This document shows, piece by piece, positions 34,895-43,539 of a stretch of 50,884 nucleotides of DNA. The position numbers and the translations under genes are program-made. The notes under the pieces are model-generated. The model was not told the DNA's origin, searched no databases, and was given only the letters and a program-made list of their open reading frames with translations. The stretch lies in sequence record SRR2962707_1476; one strand, given 5' to 3'. Position 1 is the first letter of the stretch. Each line of letters starts with the position of its first letter.

Positions 34895-34924
34895 AAATCC
34901 ACTTGCCATCGTAGGCTCGTAGGT
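34895..34924 (+). promoter_or_regulatory. Putative ECF (SigK-like) promoter copy 1: AAATCC-N17-CGTAGGT
   Basis: Same motif and spacing at 37687 and 41255; CGTA ends 34 nt before ATG 34956. Confidence 0.72.
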
Positions 34925-34955: not shown

Positions 34956-35714
34956 ATGAGAAAATTACTCCTAACAATGGGTCTGGTCGCTTCGGCCGCC
35001 TTTGTTATTCTGATGGCAGCTGATCACATCGATGCGCCTGCTGTCGGCTCGCTAACTGAGGGCAGCTCTGTGGCAGATATCACAGACTACTATGCCTTCG
35101 AAAGTCCTTCCAATTCTGACAACTATGTGTTTGTCTGCAATGTGGCAGGTCTCACCGCTCCTTCTGCATCTGCATCATTGAGTTTTGCAACGAATGTGAT
35201 GTACGAATTCAACATCGATAATGATGGTGATAATGTCGAGGACCTGGTGATTCAAACAACTTTTACCTCTGACGGTAAAGTAGTTTCCTACGGTCCGGTT
35301 GCACCGACAGCTACTGGTCTGAACAGTGTTCTTGAAACGACAGGAACAATGGTTGAAGCGGACATCACTGCATATGGTGAAAGTGCACAAGTAGGAACGG
35401 GTTCTGGAATCAGCCTTTTTGCCGGCCCTCGTGACGATCCATTTTTCATGGATTTCTTTCAGTTCGTCAGCATCGTGAATGGTGTTGGAGCATCCCTATC
35501 TGACGAAACCAATACTGGATTATATGATGGAAACAGGGATTCTGATCCGGATACGGAAGGTGTTCAGCCATATCCTGCTGCTTTCAATAATCCCGGAACG
35601 GATGCCTTCGCCGGAACGAATGTACTTTCAGTAGTTGTGGAGGTACCCAAGTCTATGCTTGGATCAAGCAACACGTTCAGCTCGTGGGTAGAAAGCAAAG
35701 TGATTGTACAATAA
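34956..35714 (+). CDS. DUF4331-family secreted protein (N-terminal-half type)
   Basis: Signal peptide followed by ADHIDAP; DITDYYAF, FNIDNDGD, FAGPRDDPFF, AGTNVLSVVVEVP. Confidence 0.88.
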   Translation: MRKLLLTMGLVASAAFVILMAADHIDAPAVGSLTEGSSVADITDYYAFESPSNSDNYVFVCNVAGLTAPSASASLSFATNVMYEFNIDNDGDNVEDLVIQTTFTSDGKVVSYGPVAPTATGLNSVLETTGTMVEADITAYGESAQVGTGSGISLFAGPRDDPFFMDFFQFVSIVNGVGASLSDETNTGLYDGNRDSDPDTEGVQPYPAAFNNPGTDAFAGTNVLSVVVEVPKSMLGSSNTFSSWVESKVIVQ

Positions 35715-35739
35715 GGTTTCAACTTAAAAATTAAAGACA

Positions 35740-36312
35740 ATGAGTATCAATAATACACTAATGAAAAAGCTTGGAATATTATTTCTGATTACTTCCATGC
35801 TATTTACCACTTCATGTGGAGATGACGATGCAGGGGTTACTCCTGATCCGGATGTTTATGCAACGATTGATCAGATGGGCAGACCTGCGATCAACACCGT
35901 ATTCAACTTCTTTGGTTCTGCGGATGTGAAAAACAACTACAACCTGACATTACCGTCAGCGGGTAGTGCGAACTCAGCGGCCTTCAAAGGAATTTTGGAT
36001 GCACTTCAAACCTATATTTTCCTTGATCCTGTCGAGTTTGAAAACATTCTTGGTATTGGCAATGCTGACTTAGCTGGTGTACTTGCAGTCGATGTACTGA
36101 CCTCAGACAAGACAGCCTCTTCGTCATATGGAACCTTGAACGGTCGGGCACTTGGAGATGATGTGGTCGATGTAACCTTGCTGCTTGCTTTTAGCGATCA
36201 GTCGGATGCAGGAGCCGATAATCAAGTAAAAGCTGGAGTATCTTCTGACAATGTAAGCGCTAACGATAAGTCGTTCAGCAGCACATTCCCATACCTGGCA
36301 TCACCTCACTAA
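35740..36312 (+). CDS. DUF4331-family lipoprotein (C-terminal-half type; alternative start 35761)
   Basis: Lipobox TTSC-GDDD; QMGRPAINT, NGRAL.DDVVD, FPYLASPH. Confidence 0.85.
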   Translation: MSINNTLMKKLGILFLITSMLFTTSCGDDDAGVTPDPDVYATIDQMGRPAINTVFNFFGSADVKNNYNLTLPSAGSANSAAFKGILDALQTYIFLDPVEFENILGIGNADLAGVLAVDVLTSDKTASSSYGTLNGRALGDDVVDVTLLLAFSDQSDAGADNQVKAGVSSDNVSANDKSFSSTFPYLASPH

Positions 36313-36316
36313 TCAT

Positions 36317-36356
36317 ATTGGAAGTCATCATGCTATGGGGTGACTTCCAATTTTTT
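36317..36356 (+). terminator. Intra-operon hairpin/terminator between the DUF4331 pair and the TPR gene
   Basis: ATTGGAAGTCATC...GGTGACTTCCAAT 13-bp stem (one G-U) plus T run. Confidence 0.8.
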
Positions 36357-36377
36357 CTCACTATCAATTAAGCTATT

Positions 36378-37718
36378 ATGAAATCTCTCTTACGAATTAT
36401 TGTCTTTTTTTGGGTTTTATCTTCATGTACCCAGGTTCAAGACGAACAGATCGCAAAAGCCAAAGATTACGAAAAGTACCTTGACATAAATCAAGAAGAA
36501 ACCATTCTGTCATTGGAGCAGGAAGTTACTTTTTGGAAAGAAAAGATCAGCAGTCTGCCAAATGGATTCACGTATCATCAAAAATTAGGGAGCAGCTATC
36601 TCTCCTTATTTGAAACAACCGGGAGGATCGAATACCTGCATTTAGCAAACACAGCTTTTGAGCAGGCTGAATCGCTGACATTAGGTGCCGTCAAGACTGG
36701 GAGTCTTCTCACCTTGAGTAGCCTATCCATCAAGAAGCACGACTTTGAATCAGCTGCAAAATATGCTGTACAGGCTAAAAGTGCCTCAGAAGAAAAATTA
36801 GGTCCATTGCTCATGCAGTTTGATGCTGAAATGGAGCTTGGAAATTACCAGGCAGCTGGGGCCATTCTAAAGGAAAACAAACAAAAAACATCTTTCGACT
36901 ACCTCGTGCGATTGTCTAAGTATAAAGACTATGAAGGAGATCTTGATTCAGCTATTTACTATATGCAAACAGCTGAAAGTTTGGTGCAAAAAGAACATTC
37001 AGGCAGGAAAGTTTGGGCCAAAGCCAATCTTGGGGACATGTACGGTCATGCAGGAAGAATTACTGATTCTTATAATAAATACCTGGAGGTCCTCTCCTTT
37101 GATTCGACTTACAGCTATGTGCTGAAGGGTATTGCCTGGATTGCATATTCAGCCGATCACAATACAGAAGAAGCTATGCGAATTCTAAAAGCCATCCATC
37201 AGCGGACAGCTATGCCTGACTTACTTTTAAACATGGCTGAAATCCATGAATACGAAGGAAGAAACGACCAGGCAGTTCGGTTAAAAACAGATTTCATTGA
37301 GGAGGCTACACGGGATGAATACCTCAGCATGTACAACAAGTACCTCATCGATTTGTATCTCGAAAGGGGCGAAATGGAAAAGGCATTGGCACTCGCTCAG
37401 AATGAGGTGGACACAAGGCCAACGCCTGCTACCTTCGATTGGCTGGCAAGGGTCTATGCAAAAAAGGGCAATTTGAATGAAGCAATCCATCTCTATCGGA
37501 CTGAGGTGGAAGGTAAGACCCAGGAGCCCGAAACGATTTTGCATATGGGGTTGGCTTATCACCTTGCAGGAATAGAAAAGGGTGAAAACTACCTCGAAGA
37601 AAGCCTGGAATCGTCGTTTGAGTTGGGACCACTTTGGAGCCGGACAATAGAAGAAACATTGAAATCTAAAAAAATTGCAATGGGGGAAATCCAAACAGGC
37701 TCATCACTTCGTAAGTAG
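36378..37718 (+). CDS. TPR-repeat lipoprotein associated with the DUF4331 locus
   Basis: Lipobox LSSC; helical TPR pattern; MYGHAGRI..SY..YL, FELGP. Confidence 0.82.
   Translation: MKSLLRIIVFFWVLSSCTQVQDEQIAKAKDYEKYLDINQEETILSLEQEVTFWKEKISSLPNGFTYHQKLGSSYLSLFETTGRIEYLHLANTAFEQAESLTLGAVKTGSLLTLSSLSIKKHDFESAAKYAVQAKSASEEKLGPLLMQFDAEMELGNYQAAGAILKENKQKTSFDYLVRLSKYKDYEGDLDSAIYYMQTAESLVQKEHSGRKVWAKANLGDMYGHAGRITDSYNKYLEVLSFDSTYSYVLKGIAWIAYSADHNTEEAMRILKAIHQRTAMPDLLLNMAEIHEYEGRNDQAVRLKTDFIEEATRDEYLSMYNKYLIDLYLERGEMEKALALAQNEVDTRPTPATFDWLARVYAKKGNLNEAIHLYRTEVEGKTQEPETILHMGLAYHLAGIEKGENYLEESLESSFELGPLWSRTIEETLKSKKIAMGEIQTGSSLRK
37687..37716 (+). promoter_or_regulatory. Putative ECF promoter copy 2, inside the TPR gene 3' end: AAATCC-N17-CGTAAGT
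   Basis: Matches copies 1 and 3 in both boxes and in spacer length. Confidence 0.68.
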
Positions 37719-37719
37719 C

Positions 37720-37802
37720 CTTGAAAAGAAACAACTTTCGTGCAATGCACGGATAGCTGGTTGGTGATAGAGAGCCCTGGTTGTTGTGACCGGGGTTTTT
37801 TT
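37720..37802 (+). ncRNA. Candidate ECF-dependent small RNA (~82 nt)
   Basis: Promoter motif immediately upstream, internal hairpin TTCGTGC-AAT-GCACGGA, GU-rich linker, intrinsic terminator; ends are predicted. Confidence 0.55.
37772..37802 (+). terminator. Intrinsic terminator
   Basis: GAGCCCTGGTT...GACCGGGGTTT stem (with G-U pairs) followed by a T run. Confidence 0.78.
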
Positions 37803-37868
37803 CTTAAGGATGTGTTAATGCTGCTTCATCATTAGCAACCAAACCACTCGAAGATTATATTCGAGTAT

Positions 37869-38990
37869 ATGATCACACGTTTCCTAATCATTGGAATGGT
37901 GTTTTTGATCCTGTCTTGTGAAGACACACATAAGCATCATCCGATTTTGCAATACTATCCATCTGAATCAGTCTTTGATGCGGGCTTTGTAAACAAGTCG
38001 TATCGGCATTATATCCCCAATAATCCAGATGCAACATCAAGAACGGAGATCCGCTACATAAGATATCAGAAAACGGGAGATGATACCTTCAAAACGGACA
38101 TGTACAATGCCGGATTTCAGTGGACCGGTGAGCGCTACTTTAGGGTAAAAGAAGATACTCTTTTCCTCGAAAGAGGTACGGGAGTCAGCTGGGACTTATT
38201 GGATACGCTAGAACTCAATTTGCAAAGTCACATTCTCTCCATTTGGCAAGGACAAAATGATGTACCCTATCAGGTTCAGTACAAGTTTAATGAGAAAGAT
38301 TACCTCTATTCGGAGTATCAGCAAACTGTTTATGATAGCATCATCCTTGACAAGCCGGCAAAGGTTTTTGCGAACAAATGGGATTACCGAGCCATTGAAA
38401 ATGACTCTTTGATAAGTCAAGGTAGCTCCAGGTCATATTACGTGAAAGAATTGGGATTTTTTGGCAGTGATGAACTTGCAGAAGAGTATTCAACTAAAAA
38501 TGAATTGATTGAGCAGATGTCGGCTAATGAGTTTGAAAGAAGATCACAGCATAACAAGAATCGGATTGCCTACATCGATCCTGCATCTACGTTGAGCGAT
38601 GACGCTGACTTCAAGTTATGTTCGCATGAAGATCGAATTGCTGACTACTATAATGCACGTCCCTATGCCCAATTCAAAGAAGGTAAGAAGGAGATGGAAC
38701 GCATCATATTTGAGCAGCTTGACCGAGAAACATTAGTTGGTGAAAACGGTATGCTAACCTTCCGGTTTGTAGTCAATTGTGAAGGAAAAGCAGGGCGCTT
38801 TGTTACTGAACAATTTGATTTTGATTATCACAGAACGACATTTTCTCAAGAGACTGTCGATCATTTGCTGGAGATCCTGATGGGGTTGGAGGATTGGCAG
38901 GCGCTGACCATCAGTGATGAACCGCGAGATGCCTATGTATACATCACATTTAAAATTGAGCATGGAGAGATCATTGACATATTGCCTTAG
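37869..38990 (+). CDS. Lipoprotein with C-terminal TonB-C-like domain
   Basis: Lipobox ILSC; C-terminal GMLTFRFVVNCEGKAGRF...W.A...YITFKI. Confidence 0.7.
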   Translation: MITRFLIIGMVFLILSCEDTHKHHPILQYYPSESVFDAGFVNKSYRHYIPNNPDATSRTEIRYIRYQKTGDDTFKTDMYNAGFQWTGERYFRVKEDTLFLERGTGVSWDLLDTLELNLQSHILSIWQGQNDVPYQVQYKFNEKDYLYSEYQQTVYDSIILDKPAKVFANKWDYRAIENDSLISQGSSRSYYVKELGFFGSDELAEEYSTKNELIEQMSANEFERRSQHNKNRIAYIDPASTLSDDADFKLCSHEDRIADYYNARPYAQFKEGKKEMERIIFEQLDRETLVGENGMLTFRFVVNCEGKAGRFVTEQFDFDYHRTTFSQETVDHLLEILMGLEDWQALTISDEPRDAYVYITFKIEHGEIIDILP

Positions 38991-39829: not shown

Positions 39830-40624
39830 CTACACATTTCCAACCACCTGCATGGTCTCCAGCGATGGATTTACACTACCGCCTTTTGGCTCGATAGTTA
39901 CGGCGAATGCTGCCGCATTTGACCCGATGTTTTTCATCTGAACAAGCATCTGCCCCGATTTAATATCAAATACACCTGCATCTACAGGTTTGCCATCTAT
40001 GATAGCCCAAAGTTGATATTGTTGATCCTGGGAAAGAGATTTCAGATTTTGAATGCTCAGATATACATCCTCTGTAGCCTCATTCCAGTAAACCGTAGCA
40101 AGTGACTGAGGCGAATTATCTGTGCCATTCATGACTACACGTTGGTACGCACTGTTGTTCATGATCGCAACAGCACCTTGTAGATCATCCAACTGCTGGT
40201 TCACCATGTTATAGTTGTCAGCAAATTGTTGATTTTGAGCAATCAAACTGGAAAGTCGATCTTCTGCGCCTTGCCATTTGCTCCAATAATTAAACGCCAT
40301 TAAGAGTGAACCAATAGCGATGATCACTGAAGCAGCCGCCGCATATTTCATAAAAGAAGAACTGCCAGAAGTGTCCATCGAAATAACCGGCGTGTCACTG
40401 TCATCTTCCAGCTGATCCATAAGTTTTGACTTAAGGTCAGCCTTTGGTTTCACGGCAGTTGCGAAGGCCAGAGCTTCCATCGTTTCTTCGATACGATCGA
40501 TCTCCTCCCTGATCTCCGTGTGATCAGCAGCCATCTTTTCCACTTCTGCGCGTTCAGCAGTGCTTAGCTGATCCATCACATAAGCTTCTAGAATTCCTGA
40601 CGATATGTATGCTTCTACATTCAC
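39830..40624 (-). CDS. Anti-sigma factor, RskA family
   Basis: YISSGILEAYV N-domain, single TM, coiled coil, QYQLWAI..GKPVDAGVF, FAVTIEP.GGS..P. Confidence 0.9.
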   Translation of the reverse strand: MNVEAYISSGILEAYVMDQLSTAERAEVEKMAADHTEIREEIDRIEETMEALAFATAVKPKADLKSKLMDQLEDDSDTPVISMDTSGSSSFMKYAAAASVIIAIGSLLMAFNYWSKWQGAEDRLSSLIAQNQQFADNYNMVNQQLDDLQGAVAIMNNSAYQRVVMNGTDNSPQSLATVYWNEATEDVYLSIQNLKSLSQDQQYQLWAIIDGKPVDAGVFDIKSGQMLVQMKNIGSNAAAFAVTIEPKGGSVNPSLETMQVVGNV

Positions 40625-41175
40625 TCTATTTTTAATACGTCTCGTAAACTTTTTAATCCCATGCGCAACCGTGTTTTCACAGTACCCAAAGGAATATCAA
40701 ATTCTTCTGCGATTTCAGATTGGGTATATCCTTTGAAATATGCCATTTCAAGTATAAACCTTTCTTCGTCTCGCAAGGCTTTCATAGCCTCTTTCAGACC
40801 AATTCCGTCAATGTTTTGGTAGCTCTGGTGGGATAGCTCTATACCAGTTACGTAAGTTTCCATGGTATCGGTTTTCCCGGCCTTCTTAATTTCTTTCGAA
40901 CGCAGCTTATCGATGGCAAGATTTCTGGCAATATTGATCATCCAGGTGAAGAATCTACCCTTTGATTGATCGTACTGATCAATCTTGTCCCAGAATTTCA
41001 TAAAGGCATCCTGCAAGACTTCTTCAGCTACATCTTCGTTGTTGACAATGCGTGAGATGGTACCATATATGGCAGCAGAATAGTTGTCGTATAAGTAACT
41101 GAAAGCGTCCTTGCTCCCTGCTTTAAGCCTGGCTACCAACTGATCCTGATCGATTTGTGATTTCGAATTACTCAC
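40621..41175 (-). CDS. ECF RNA polymerase sigma factor (SigK-like)
   Basis: AEEVLQDAF, FTWM..IARNLAID, GYTQSEIAE...PLGTVKTR; GTG start; 4-nt overlap with the anti-sigma gene. Confidence 0.94.
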   Translation of the reverse strand: MSNSKSQIDQDQLVARLKAGSKDAFSYLYDNYSAAIYGTISRIVNNEDVAEEVLQDAFMKFWDKIDQYDQSKGRFFTWMINIARNLAIDKLRSKEIKKAGKTDTMETYVTGIELSHQSYQNIDGIGLKEAMKALRDEERFILEMAYFKGYTQSEIAEEFDIPLGTVKTRLRMGLKSLRDVLKIE

Positions 41176-41254
41176 GCACTGTTACCTATCGGCACCTAAA
41201 TTATCAATTAAATGATGAGTGGTCGAATATTTTTTAAGTCTTTTTCTTCCTTTG

Positions 41255-41284
41255 AAATCTTTTTTGATAGCAAACGCCGTAAAT
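41255..41284 (+). promoter_or_regulatory. Putative ECF promoter copy 3: AAATCT-N17-CGTAAAT
   Basis: Same motif; CGTA ends 44 nt before the TonB receptor ATG, in the intergenic region divergent from the sigma gene. Confidence 0.68.
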
Positions 41285-41325: not shown

Positions 41326-43539
41326 ATGAAAAAAATAGCCATACTCATTTTAACATTAGCCAACATTGGTTTTCTCTACGGACAGCACGTTTCGGGCATC
41401 ATCACAGATGAAAGCAATGGCACTCCGATTGAATTTGCAACTGTTTACAATTTCACGCAAAACTCCCATTCACACTCAGATGCAACTGGTAAATTCATTC
41501 TGAATCAATTGAAATCCGGGGATTCAATAGTTGTTTCGATGGTGGGGTATGAGCGTCTTTCTTTCATTTATTCATCAAATAATGGCCTAAACATTTCCTT
41601 GATTCCTGCACCAGTTCAACTGGATCAGATTACAATCACCCCGGAGTTAAACACCCTCAACAAAATCCGAGATGTAGATCTTCAGATCAATCCGGTTAAT
41701 TCTTCACAGGAAATCCTTCGTAAAGTCCCAGGGCTATTTATCGCCCAGCATGCAGGTGGAGGAAAGGCTGAGCAAATTTTTCTAAGGGGTTTTGATATTG
41801 ATCATGGAACAGACATCCAAATCACTACGGATGGGATGCCTGTGAACATGGTTTCACATGCACACGGACAAGGCTATGCCGACCTTCATTACTTGATCCC
41901 GGAAACCATAGAGGCGGTGGATTTTGGAAAAGGGCCTTATTATGCACAGAAAGGAAACTTTACCACTGCAGGCTATGTGGATTTCAAAACCAAAGAGGGA
42001 ATTGATCAAAGCAGCGTGAAACTTGAAGCCGGGGATTTCAATACCTTGAGGGTTGTTAACATGCTGGATATTGTCTCAGGGAACACCAAGTCAGACGCCT
42101 ACCTTGCCACGGAGTACCTGATTACTGATGGCCCATTTCAATCTTCTCAAAATTTCAATCGGTTGAACCTGTTTGGGAAATTCAACACAAGGATTGGAAA
42201 CGATAGATTGTCGGTACAGGTGTCTACGTTCAATAGTAAGTGGGACGCATCCGGACAAATTCCTTTGAGAGCTATTGAATCCGGATCCATAGGAAGGTTT
42301 GGCGCTATTGATGACACTGAAGGTGGAGAAACTTCTCGTCAAAATATACTTGTTGATTACACTAAGACCATTTCAGAAGTGGTATTTGTGCGGACGAAGG
42401 CATTTATCTCGAAATACGATTTTGAACTGTATTCCAACTTCACTTTTTTTCTTGACGATCCTGTCAACGGGGATCAGATCAGGCAAAAAGAAGATCGAAC
42501 GATCTATGGTTTGCAAACCAGTCACAACTATCTGACGAGCGCCTTGTCAGGTGATTTAACAATAGAAACCGGGGTTGGATTTAGGTATGATGATATCAAC
42601 GGAAATGAACTTTCTCACACGAGAAATCGGCAAGAAACACTTGAGTCATTTGCACTTTCAGATATCGATGAGTTCAATGGGTTTGTCTATTCGAATGCGG
42701 AATGGGAATCTGGGAATTGGCTATTGAATGCAGGAGTTCGCCTGGATCAATTCAGGTTTGAGGAGATCGACTTTCTCAGTGCTACCTATGATCGTAAATC
42801 CAAAACCCAAACTTTCTTCGCACCCAAACTCAATGTGGTTTACAGGGCATCCAGTCAATTGCAGCTTTATGCAAAAACAGGAAAAGGGTTTCACAGTAAT
42901 GACACACGAGTTGTATTAAGATCAGCTGAAAGGACATTGCCAGCAGCGACTGGTTATGATCTTGGCGTGATCTATCAGCCGTTTGAGCGATTGGTGGTGG
43001 ATGTAGCATACTGGCAGCTCTTTTTACAACAGGAATTTGTATATGTCGGAGATGCGGGCATTGTGGAGCCTAGTGGCAGATCCAAACGACAGGGAGTGGA
43101 CGTTGGAATCAACTATCAATTGACGGATAAACTGTTTGCGTTTGCCAACTTCAACTACGCCAATCCAAAAGCCATTGATGAACCGGAGGGTGCTGATTAC
43201 ATTCCTTTAGCACCTACGTTTACCAGTGTTGGAGGAATATCGTATCGGGGGAATCGAATCAATGCCAGTTTTAACTATAGATACATTGGTGACAGGGCAG
43301 CAAATGAAGATTATTCGGTTACTGCCGAAGGATATCTGGTCTCCAACCTTTCCTTGAATTACAATCGACCTTCCTGGACAATTGGTATTTCCGTTGAAAA
43401 CTTGTTTGATGTGGAGTGGCGAGAAGCGCAGTTTGATACTGAATCCAGGCTTGCCGAAGAGACTGAATCAGCTTCGGAGATCCACTTCACTCCCGGGGTA
43501 CCCTTCTTTGCTAAAGCAGGGATGACATTCAGGTTTTAA
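41326..43539 (+). CDS. TonB-dependent receptor with His-rich plug
   Basis: Signal peptide; QHAGGGKAEQIFLRGFDIDHGTD, SHAHGQGYAD; C-terminal MTFRF. Confidence 0.9.
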   Translation: MKKIAILILTLANIGFLYGQHVSGIITDESNGTPIEFATVYNFTQNSHSHSDATGKFILNQLKSGDSIVVSMVGYERLSFIYSSNNGLNISLIPAPVQLDQITITPELNTLNKIRDVDLQINPVNSSQEILRKVPGLFIAQHAGGGKAEQIFLRGFDIDHGTDIQITTDGMPVNMVSHAHGQGYADLHYLIPETIEAVDFGKGPYYAQKGNFTTAGYVDFKTKEGIDQSSVKLEAGDFNTLRVVNMLDIVSGNTKSDAYLATEYLITDGPFQSSQNFNRLNLFGKFNTRIGNDRLSVQVSTFNSKWDASGQIPLRAIESGSIGRFGAIDDTEGGETSRQNILVDYTKTISEVVFVRTKAFISKYDFELYSNFTFFLDDPVNGDQIRQKEDRTIYGLQTSHNYLTSALSGDLTIETGVGFRYDDINGNELSHTRNRQETLESFALSDIDEFNGFVYSNAEWESGNWLLNAGVRLDQFRFEEIDFLSATYDRKSKTQTFFAPKLNVVYRASSQLQLYAKTGKGFHSNDTRVVLRSAERTLPAATGYDLGVIYQPFERLVVDVAYWQLFLQQEFVYVGDAGIVEPSGRSKRQGVDVGINYQLTDKLFAFANFNYANPKAIDEPEGADYIPLAPTFTSVGGISYRGNRINASFNYRYIGDRAANEDYSVTAEGYLVSNLSLNYNRPSWTIGISVENLFDVEWREAQFDTESRLAEETESASEIHFTPGVPFFAKAGMTFRF

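Follow-up and report, generated by a model that had tools for sequence, protein, structure and literature searches.

Several sRNAs are known to stand under the control of ECF sigma factors. In E. coli, MicA, RybB and MicL belong to sigmaE; MicL, whose start lies 226 nt inside cutC, undergoes processing, depends on Hfq and acts as a repressor of lpp (PMC4102768). In Fusobacterium nucleatum, the sigmaE-dependent FoxI and FoxJ repress the porin FomA, as has been proven experimentally (PMC11005410). Few sRNAs of Bacteroidota have been characterized, and those that we found in the literature all come from gut or fish-associated models. Among them, FopS of Bacteroides thetaiotaomicron carries its seed in a single-stranded 5' part and has a housekeeping promoter, GibS has a PM2 motif, and the targets are susC starts (PMC11697453, PMC7366714). 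Bacteroidota encode 22.5 ECF sigma factors per genome on average (bioRxiv 10.1101/2019.12.11.873521). In ECF18, ECF19 and ECF214, an RskA-like anti-sigma factor stands at position +1, DUF4331 and fasciclin genes occur in the context, and the predicted promoters of ECF18 and ECF19 show ATC in the -35 and CG or CGTA in the -10 element (PMC7826278). In the text covered, no sRNA is mentioned for ECF18, ECF19 or ECF214 (PMC7826278), and the passages covered from transcriptome papers on B. thetaiotaomicron and F. psychrophilum name no ECF-driven sRNA. Searches of the openly accessible literature for ECF-dependent or sibling sRNAs of Bacteroidota and Cytophagales returned no description of the RNA presented here. 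DUF4331 gave no match in main texts, and the 20 matches listed of 420 for the core sequence of this RNA were all eukaryotic chance matches.

The locus under study lies in a 50,884-nt stretch of SRR2962707_1476 (hereafter the window), and genome-scale tests were run on the genomes of relatives. The closest named relatives of the TPR protein encoded in the window belong to Ekhidna (Cyclobacteriaceae, Cytophagales), with 49-56% identity. The gene order is DUF4249, DUF4331a, DUF4331b, TPR, the RNA unit, a 373-aa ORF and TPR2; beyond TPR2, an rskA-like gene and the sigma gene are encoded on the minus strand, followed by a TonB-dependent receptor. Two DUF4331 ORFs and the gene of a TPR lipoprotein (446 aa, 36378-37718) form an operon at 34956..37718 (+). 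Of the two DUF4331 ORFs (34956-36312), one corresponds to the N-terminal end of the Pfam model and the other to its C-terminal end, a split that is kept across Bacteroidota loci. The ECF sigma factor (40621..41175, -) has SigK as its best NCBIfam match, which at 137.7 bits stays below the cut-off of 226 for SigK (ECF19s2). No cysteine is present in the protein, which thus lacks the sigma4 cysteine pair of the redox-sensing SigK (ECF19s2) sigma. Directly downstream of the sigma gene, as in SigK (ECF19s2) systems, lies the gene of an RskA-type anti-sigma factor (39830..40624, -) with Pfam RskA_C above its cut-off. The TonB-dependent receptor gene (41326-43539) stands separately here; in the operon of many relatives (L010, L021, L025, L028) it directly follows TPR, in the very slot that the RNA occupies in Ekhidna.

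Within this arrangement, we find an ECF-type promoter with a -35 box AAATCC (37687..37692, +) and a -10 box CGTA-NN-T (CGTAAGT; 37710..37716, +) separated by a 17-nt spacer, both assigned by sequence, a promoter matrix and conservation. As the original prediction had it, these boxes occupy the last 32 nt of the TPR ORF. The bare motif ATCC-N16-18-CGTA does not exceed chance, either in the window (5 matches against 2.1 expected, with 7 of 100 shuffles as high) or genome-wide, where its counts equal those of a reversed control. The site rises above chance because of its position, that is, its rank under the matrix and its recurrence with the RNA in 21 genomes. The matrix was trained only on 68 DUF4331-operon promoters and is independent of the RNA unit: in 68 of 77 Bacteroidota loci, ATC(C/T)-N16/17-CGTA occurs no more than 160 nt upstream of DUF4331a, whereas 0 of 77 control regions contain it. 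With 23.4 bits, the site at 37689 is the highest-scoring one in the window, and it exceeds the maximum of 20.3 bits reached in 2.4 Mb of Ekhidna sp. To15 sequence. It had also been claimed that the same boxes precede both the DUF4331 operon and the receptor. This holds for the operon (34895..34924, +; 19.8 bits), whereas the receptor has a weaker copy with AAATCT instead of AAATCC (AAATCT...CGTA, 41254..41284, +; 11.8 bits). The ATCT variant is present in about a fifth of DUF4331-operon promoters, and one orthologous locus (L009) carries the exact motif before the receptor gene.

The 21 orthologous promoters score 14.9-25.0 bits and lie 37-48 nt from the core of the RNA, with a spacer of 17 nt in 19 of them and 16 nt in two. 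Across 22 copies, the -35 sequence AATCCA is conserved at 80-100%. The promoter is hidden in the TPR coding sequence in the window, which invited a comparison with MicL; in all ten TPR-linked orthologues with a promoter, by contrast, the -35 box lies 1-19 nt past the stop codon. The overlap in the window exists because a stop codon was lost, leaving a 16-residue C-terminal tail that covers the promoter and is absent from the relatives of the TPR protein. Judging from these loci, the parallel with the promoter-in-CDS geometry of MicL is incidental. A sigma or rskA match occurs within 8 kb in many of 80 loci. From this co-location, and from the promoters listed for ECF groups (PMC7826278), we infer that the motif is read by the neighbouring SigK/RskA-like sigma.

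The promoter also occurs elsewhere. In two distant relatives (L053:9305 and L073:9333), the same ECF promoter after TPR drives a protein gene instead of an RNA, and the start of its product may resemble a fasciclin-domain protein. Four further intergenic matches to the matrix in To15 (L349:5224, L265:4467(-), L275:8243 and L285:18969) score 16.5-19.7 bits and are candidate regulon members.

Downstream of the promoter, an RNA of ~82 nt is predicted at 37720..37802 (+), its start deduced from the -10 box. It comprises a 5' hairpin (37737..37753, +; TTCGTGC at 37737-37743, AAT, GCACGGA at 37747-37753) whose sequence varies while its pairing is kept, the stretch TAGCTGGTTGGTGATAG (37754-37770, +), and an intrinsic terminator (37774..37802, +; stem 37774-37796, T run 37796-37802). 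All three lie where they had first been noticed, and a simple terminator scan of the window did not include 37774..37802 among its calls. By conservation, the middle part divides into a core, ATAGCTGGTTG (37753..37763, +), which is common to sibling RNAs, and an extension, GTGATAGA (37764..37771, +), which is specific to the ECF-linked sibling; of the 21 orthologues with a promoter, 20 have it and L213 lacks it. The GU-rich stretch had been described as unpaired; its location stands, but in the predicted fold of the window copy GGUUG pairs with an upstream CAACU near the 5' end, and the core may be partly paired there. An 88-nt stretch gave a fold z-score of -3.26, and 1 of 200 shuffles was as stable. 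One RNA run (share 0.12) yielded low-depth contigs on neighbouring genes and none over 37424-38104, a depth too shallow to tell.

In orthologues, both helices covary. Two-sided changes affect 10 of 11 pairs of the 5' hairpin in a model-fitted alignment (n=25) and 6 of 11 in an unfitted one (n=13). In the terminator, 98% of cells are paired and 5 of 10 pairs show two-sided changes in the model-fitted alignment. For the whole structure, 91.6% of cells are paired in the model-fitted alignment, a value reached by 0 of 500 shuffles and compared with 30-41% for slid controls, and 87.7% in the unfitted alignment; relatedness inflates counts of this kind. The promoter boxes and the stretch GCUGGUUGGUGAUAGA are conserved at 90% or more across 22 copies, in which the promoter spacer is only 31% identical. 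A loop-free core of constant sequence is flanked by variable helices, the usual signature of a seed. No ORF in the RNA is conserved across 21 orthologues, and a small peptide encoded in it was rejected on this ground. The window and 20 sibling loci lack any Rfam 15 match at gathering. As far as sequence comparison goes, the unit is a real, conserved and uncatalogued non-coding RNA gene. That it could be an ordinary terminator beside a DNA-level binding site, without function of its own, is extremely improbable: the motifs are short, as this reading would have it, yet the 5' hairpin covaries, the distance between promoter and core is conserved, and the orientation from core to terminator is fixed in all copies.

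The distribution of the unit tells with which genes it belongs. Behind TPR, the complete set of promoter, hairpin, core and terminator is found in 10 of 80 genome loci; 2 others have a short variant lacking a promoter, and the remaining 68 have neither form. A covariance model, R2, was applied to 42 genomes of the genus, some of which are incomplete. It matched in 25 of them, with 24 strong places (21 with and 3 without promoter) and 4 weak ones corresponding to plain terminators or other siblings. The promoter is thus combined with the covarying hairpin, the core and the terminator in 21 of the 42 genomes, and these 21 form one clade and are not independent events. Conservation of promoter, core and terminator at orthologous loci was the test that the original prediction had set for itself, and it is what we observe. 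The sigma orthologue is found in 29 of the 42 genomes and DUF4331a in 14. Sigma is present in all 21 genomes with promoter and RNA, and the unit is present in none of the 13 genomes without a sigma match; one of these (G235) has both promoter and core in degraded form. In 8 genomes, sigma occurs without promoter and RNA. The proposed tie to the DUF4331-TPR operon is not supported by this comparison: 9 of the 21 unit genomes, 4 of them apparently single-contig, show no DUF4331 match and a tenth has its match ~1 Mb from the unit. In these 10 the unit stands directly behind DUF4249, and in the other 11 loci behind TPR. Because it accompanies sigma in 21 of 21 genomes, occurs in 9 without DUF4331 and stands after another gene in 10, the unit is, by its distribution, an independent gene that tracks sigma rather than the operon. 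What remains of its description as the non-coding arm of the SigK/RskA-like system is a discrete non-coding gene with an ECF-type promoter that co-occurs with the sigma pair. Very probably, this gene is a member of the neighbouring sigma's regulon. In 400 other genomes of the order, promoter plus core gave 3 matches, the level of the control, and a metagenome scan returned only distant TPR relatives.

These data also bear on two readings in which the unit serves a neighbouring gene. Contrary to the claim that no annotated gene follows, the 373-aa ORF begins at 37869 on the same strand, 67 nt past the T run. The ECF promoter might serve this ORF, with hairpin, core and terminator setting read-through as a cis-acting leader or attenuator, and the ORF is indeed found no more than ~1.5 kb downstream in 16 of 21 promoter-bearing loci. 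We consider this quite improbable. An intact unit is also found in 5 loci that lack the 373-aa gene and in 2 where that gene is 800 nt away, a convergent gene follows it in L202 as it does many siblings, and no leader peptide is conserved in the 21 orthologues. A TTAA-N7-TTAA box lies just past the terminator (37804-37818), with a similar box in 13 of 22 orthologous loci; it probably regulates the 373-aa ORF gene, because every locus with such a box is one where that ORF follows.

Alternatively, the unit could be a 3'-end element of the upstream mRNA, serving as a signal for stability or processing or giving rise to an sRNA by cleavage of the 3' UTR, in which case the promoter match would be incidental or minor. 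Two genomes (G004 and G418) have a short promoterless variant after the TPR stop, the siblings of type D sit directly 3' of a small ORF (63 residues, no Pfam match), and, because the unit is at the same time the terminator of the operon, it will be part of operon transcripts. Nevertheless, 21 genomes retain the two boxes and the distance between them although the spacer sequence has drifted to 31% identity, and they do so also where the upstream gene is DUF4249, which makes a 3'-end element very improbable. We consider it highly likely that the RNA is made from the ECF-type promoter.

The core is not exclusive to this locus, since AUAGCUGGUU(G) before a terminator marks a wider family of siblings. 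The sequence ATAGCTGGTTG followed by a CCC...GGG hairpin was found in 93 of 401 Cyclobacteriaceae genomes, against 16 for a reversed control; of 30 loci with this pattern that were checked, 24 resemble intergenic hairpin-core-terminator units and 6 are chance matches in ORFs. Across the phylum, 42 of 301 genomes contained the exact core, a count close to that of the reversed control, and most matches had no terminator. In each complete Ekhidna genome, 4-5 family copies occupy conserved places. Core and terminator keep a fixed orientation in all copies. The downstream genes vary, and several siblings face convergent ones. Some siblings have housekeeping-like TAnnTT(T)G boxes and one copy stands behind the ECF promoter; with ECF promoter scores of at most 5.2 bits at the 24 non-ECF loci, this promoter is limited to that single member.

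Several features of the siblings were recorded in passing. Five more Ekhidna types (hairpin, ATAGCTGGTT, terminator) occupy conserved places without an ECF promoter: L293:190-310 (-), L362:3720-3840 (-), L329:17090-17190 (+), L178:1470-1545 (+) and G002:C1:3258414 (+). One genome (G082) has at least seven copies, on seven contigs, and tandem copies 150-300 nt apart were seen at G054:C1:209005-209248, G203:C43:78651-78880, G304:C1:70639-70826 and G295:C33:116184-116513. The type-D sibling directly follows a conserved unannotated ORF of 62-67 residues (L178:1283-1474 (+); also L180, L182, L185 and L219), which stands after a hybrid sensor-regulator gene and has no Pfam match. In one sibling type shared by several genera (L167, L169, L170, L172), direct repeats of TTGGCAG ~22 nt apart, 60-90 nt upstream of the core, are likely a regulator binding site.

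A family with one core invites two readings of how that core acts. In the one we favour with moderate confidence, the unit is an independent gene for a sigma-induced, trans-acting small RNA that works by base-pairing. In the other, the shared core would be a protein-binding site, and the siblings would titrate one RNA-binding protein (Csr/Rsm-like) or sponge an RNA. Several copies under different promoters with only 10-11 nt in common are what such decoys would predict; moreover, 8 nt of the core (AGCTGGTT) equal a D-arm stretch of two To15 tRNA genes (L273 and L341, on the opposite strand), a likeness that is probably due to chance, and there is no genome-wide signal of complementarity to mRNAs. 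Known decoy RNAs, however, carry repeats of their motif, and each RNA of this family has a single copy. The core is also absent from the 23S rRNA of five Ekhidna genomes, and mimicry of 23S rRNA was rejected, the Ekhidna 23S differing at that place. With the changes at the PD40 site described below, all of which keep pairing to the core, we regard the decoy reading as unlikely.

Targets of a base-pairing core were sought in 1901 To15 genes, predicted with a simple gene caller in 2.4 of 3.97 Mb (~60% of the genome). The reverse complement of (C/U)AUAGCUGGUUG is CAACCAGCU-AUG, suggesting binding at start codons as for FopS and GibS. The C/U alternation fits this idea, but real starts are not enriched: whether judged by duplex energy, word count or fixed register, the 1901 To15 starts showed no excess of complementary sites over internal ATGs or shuffled seeds, and the idea of the core as an antisense of such starts is not supported. 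Nine TonB/SusC-type starts in the same ~60% of the genome paired no better than other genes (p=0.83). No perfect start-codon target recurred across the genus among the 150 matches listed of 239, and pattern searches in 5 to 42 genomes gave no start-codon site in more than 2-3 genomes among the matches listed; searches with the core-complement pattern returned siblings rather than targets.

One recurrent non-coding site did emerge, 22-29 nt upstream of the ATG of a gene that encodes a secreted PD40 beta-propeller protein. The site, AA(C/T)C(A/G)GCT, is present in all 14 orthologues with a long 5' region, out of 30 orthologue loci, as AACCAGCT in 10, AACCGGCT in 1 and AATCAGCT in 3, so that G-U pairing to the core is kept while the flanks drift. 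One further orthologue has AATCAGCTA in a different UTR context and 15 of the 30 lack the site. No strict match was found in 27 orthologues from other genera, the background frequency of such sites is 15 in 1901 genes, and there is overlap between the site and a probable -33 box that belongs to a divergent amidase-like gene. Found post hoc, this 5' UTR site is a candidate lead for the family core. For the extension, CTATCACCA sites number 4 in To15 upstream regions against 0.3 expected (p=0.003, for one of ~50 words tested). Two of them recur, in close relatives only. For the best gene, 8 orthologues are clear and the 4 closest of these keep the site, so the extension gives weak candidates. 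A secreted 383-residue protein without Pfam match (L375-L378) has two adjacent sites, complementary to core and extension, 20 nt upstream of its start in the 4 closest of 8 clear orthologues.

Putting these elements together, we propose that the RskA-type anti-sigma factor releases the adjacent SigK-like ECF sigma, with which RNA polymerase would start near 37720 and stop at the terminator, giving the ~82-nt RNA. This RNA would be one member of a multi-copy Cyclobacteriaceae family (hairpin, AUAGCUGGUU(G), terminator) placed behind different promoters or at gene 3' ends, of which one Ekhidna copy has been wired to sigma. Its core, perhaps with the GUGAUAG extension, would most likely base-pair with a few mRNAs in their 5' regions, lower their translation and thereby provide sigma with a repressive output. 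We infer transcription, sigma dependence, base-pairing, repression and targets alike; repression, with envelope proteins as the targets, is suggested by analogy to MicA, RybB and MicL (PMC4102768) and to FoxI and FoxJ (PMC11005410). More tentatively, the Cyclobacteriaceae siblings, each with its own promoter, could feed separate signals through the invariant core to a common target, which may be a few mRNAs or one RNA-binding protein. Ekhidna would have added the SigK/RskA-like sigma to this hub, and the RNA could be a main sigma output where the DUF4331-TPR operon was lost.

What is new is a putative ~82-nt RNA of a marine Bacteroidota genus behind a stress-sigma promoter, one of several uncatalogued siblings. 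If the proposal is true, Bacteroidota would gain in it their first demonstrated ECF-controlled sRNA, within the reach of our literature search. In a genus with a cultured marine member (E. lutea), it would extend the design of an activator with an RNA repressor to this phylum and to sigma factors of SigK/RskA type. With the sibling family, the integration of several promoters by one seed can be tested in a natural setting, and the promoter offers a strong reporter for seeking the stimulus of a widespread sigma and its DUF4331 regulon.

The described systems resemble this locus in different respects. ECF18 is listed for Proteobacteria alone and has two cysteines, and ECF19 lists no Bacteroidetes, unlike the cysteine-free sigma of Ekhidna (PMC7826278). 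MicA, RybB and MicL are sRNAs for which an ECF promoter of their own lies at a gene's 3' end and which stop at that gene's terminator, and MicL-S, with ~80 nt, is similar in length to the predicted Ekhidna RNA (PMC4102768). The latter differs from MicL in its normally intergenic promoter and SigK/RskA-like sigma, with no known sequence likeness and no envelope target found. FoxI and FoxJ are also ECF-dependent, form a non-coding arm and occur outside Proteobacteria, in another phylum and under another type of sigma (PMC11005410). The FopS family and GibS are, like the Ekhidna RNA, multi-copy sRNAs of Bacteroidota with a short seed and a terminator (PMC11697453, PMC7366714). Their Rfam models gave no match over the unit even at E<=10, and in the Ekhidna RNA the core stands between the hairpin and the terminator, directly adjoining the latter. 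The promoter of GibS differs, and GibS has an additional seed, which can be compared with the ECF promoter and the extension of the Ekhidna copy (PMC11697453, PMC7366714).
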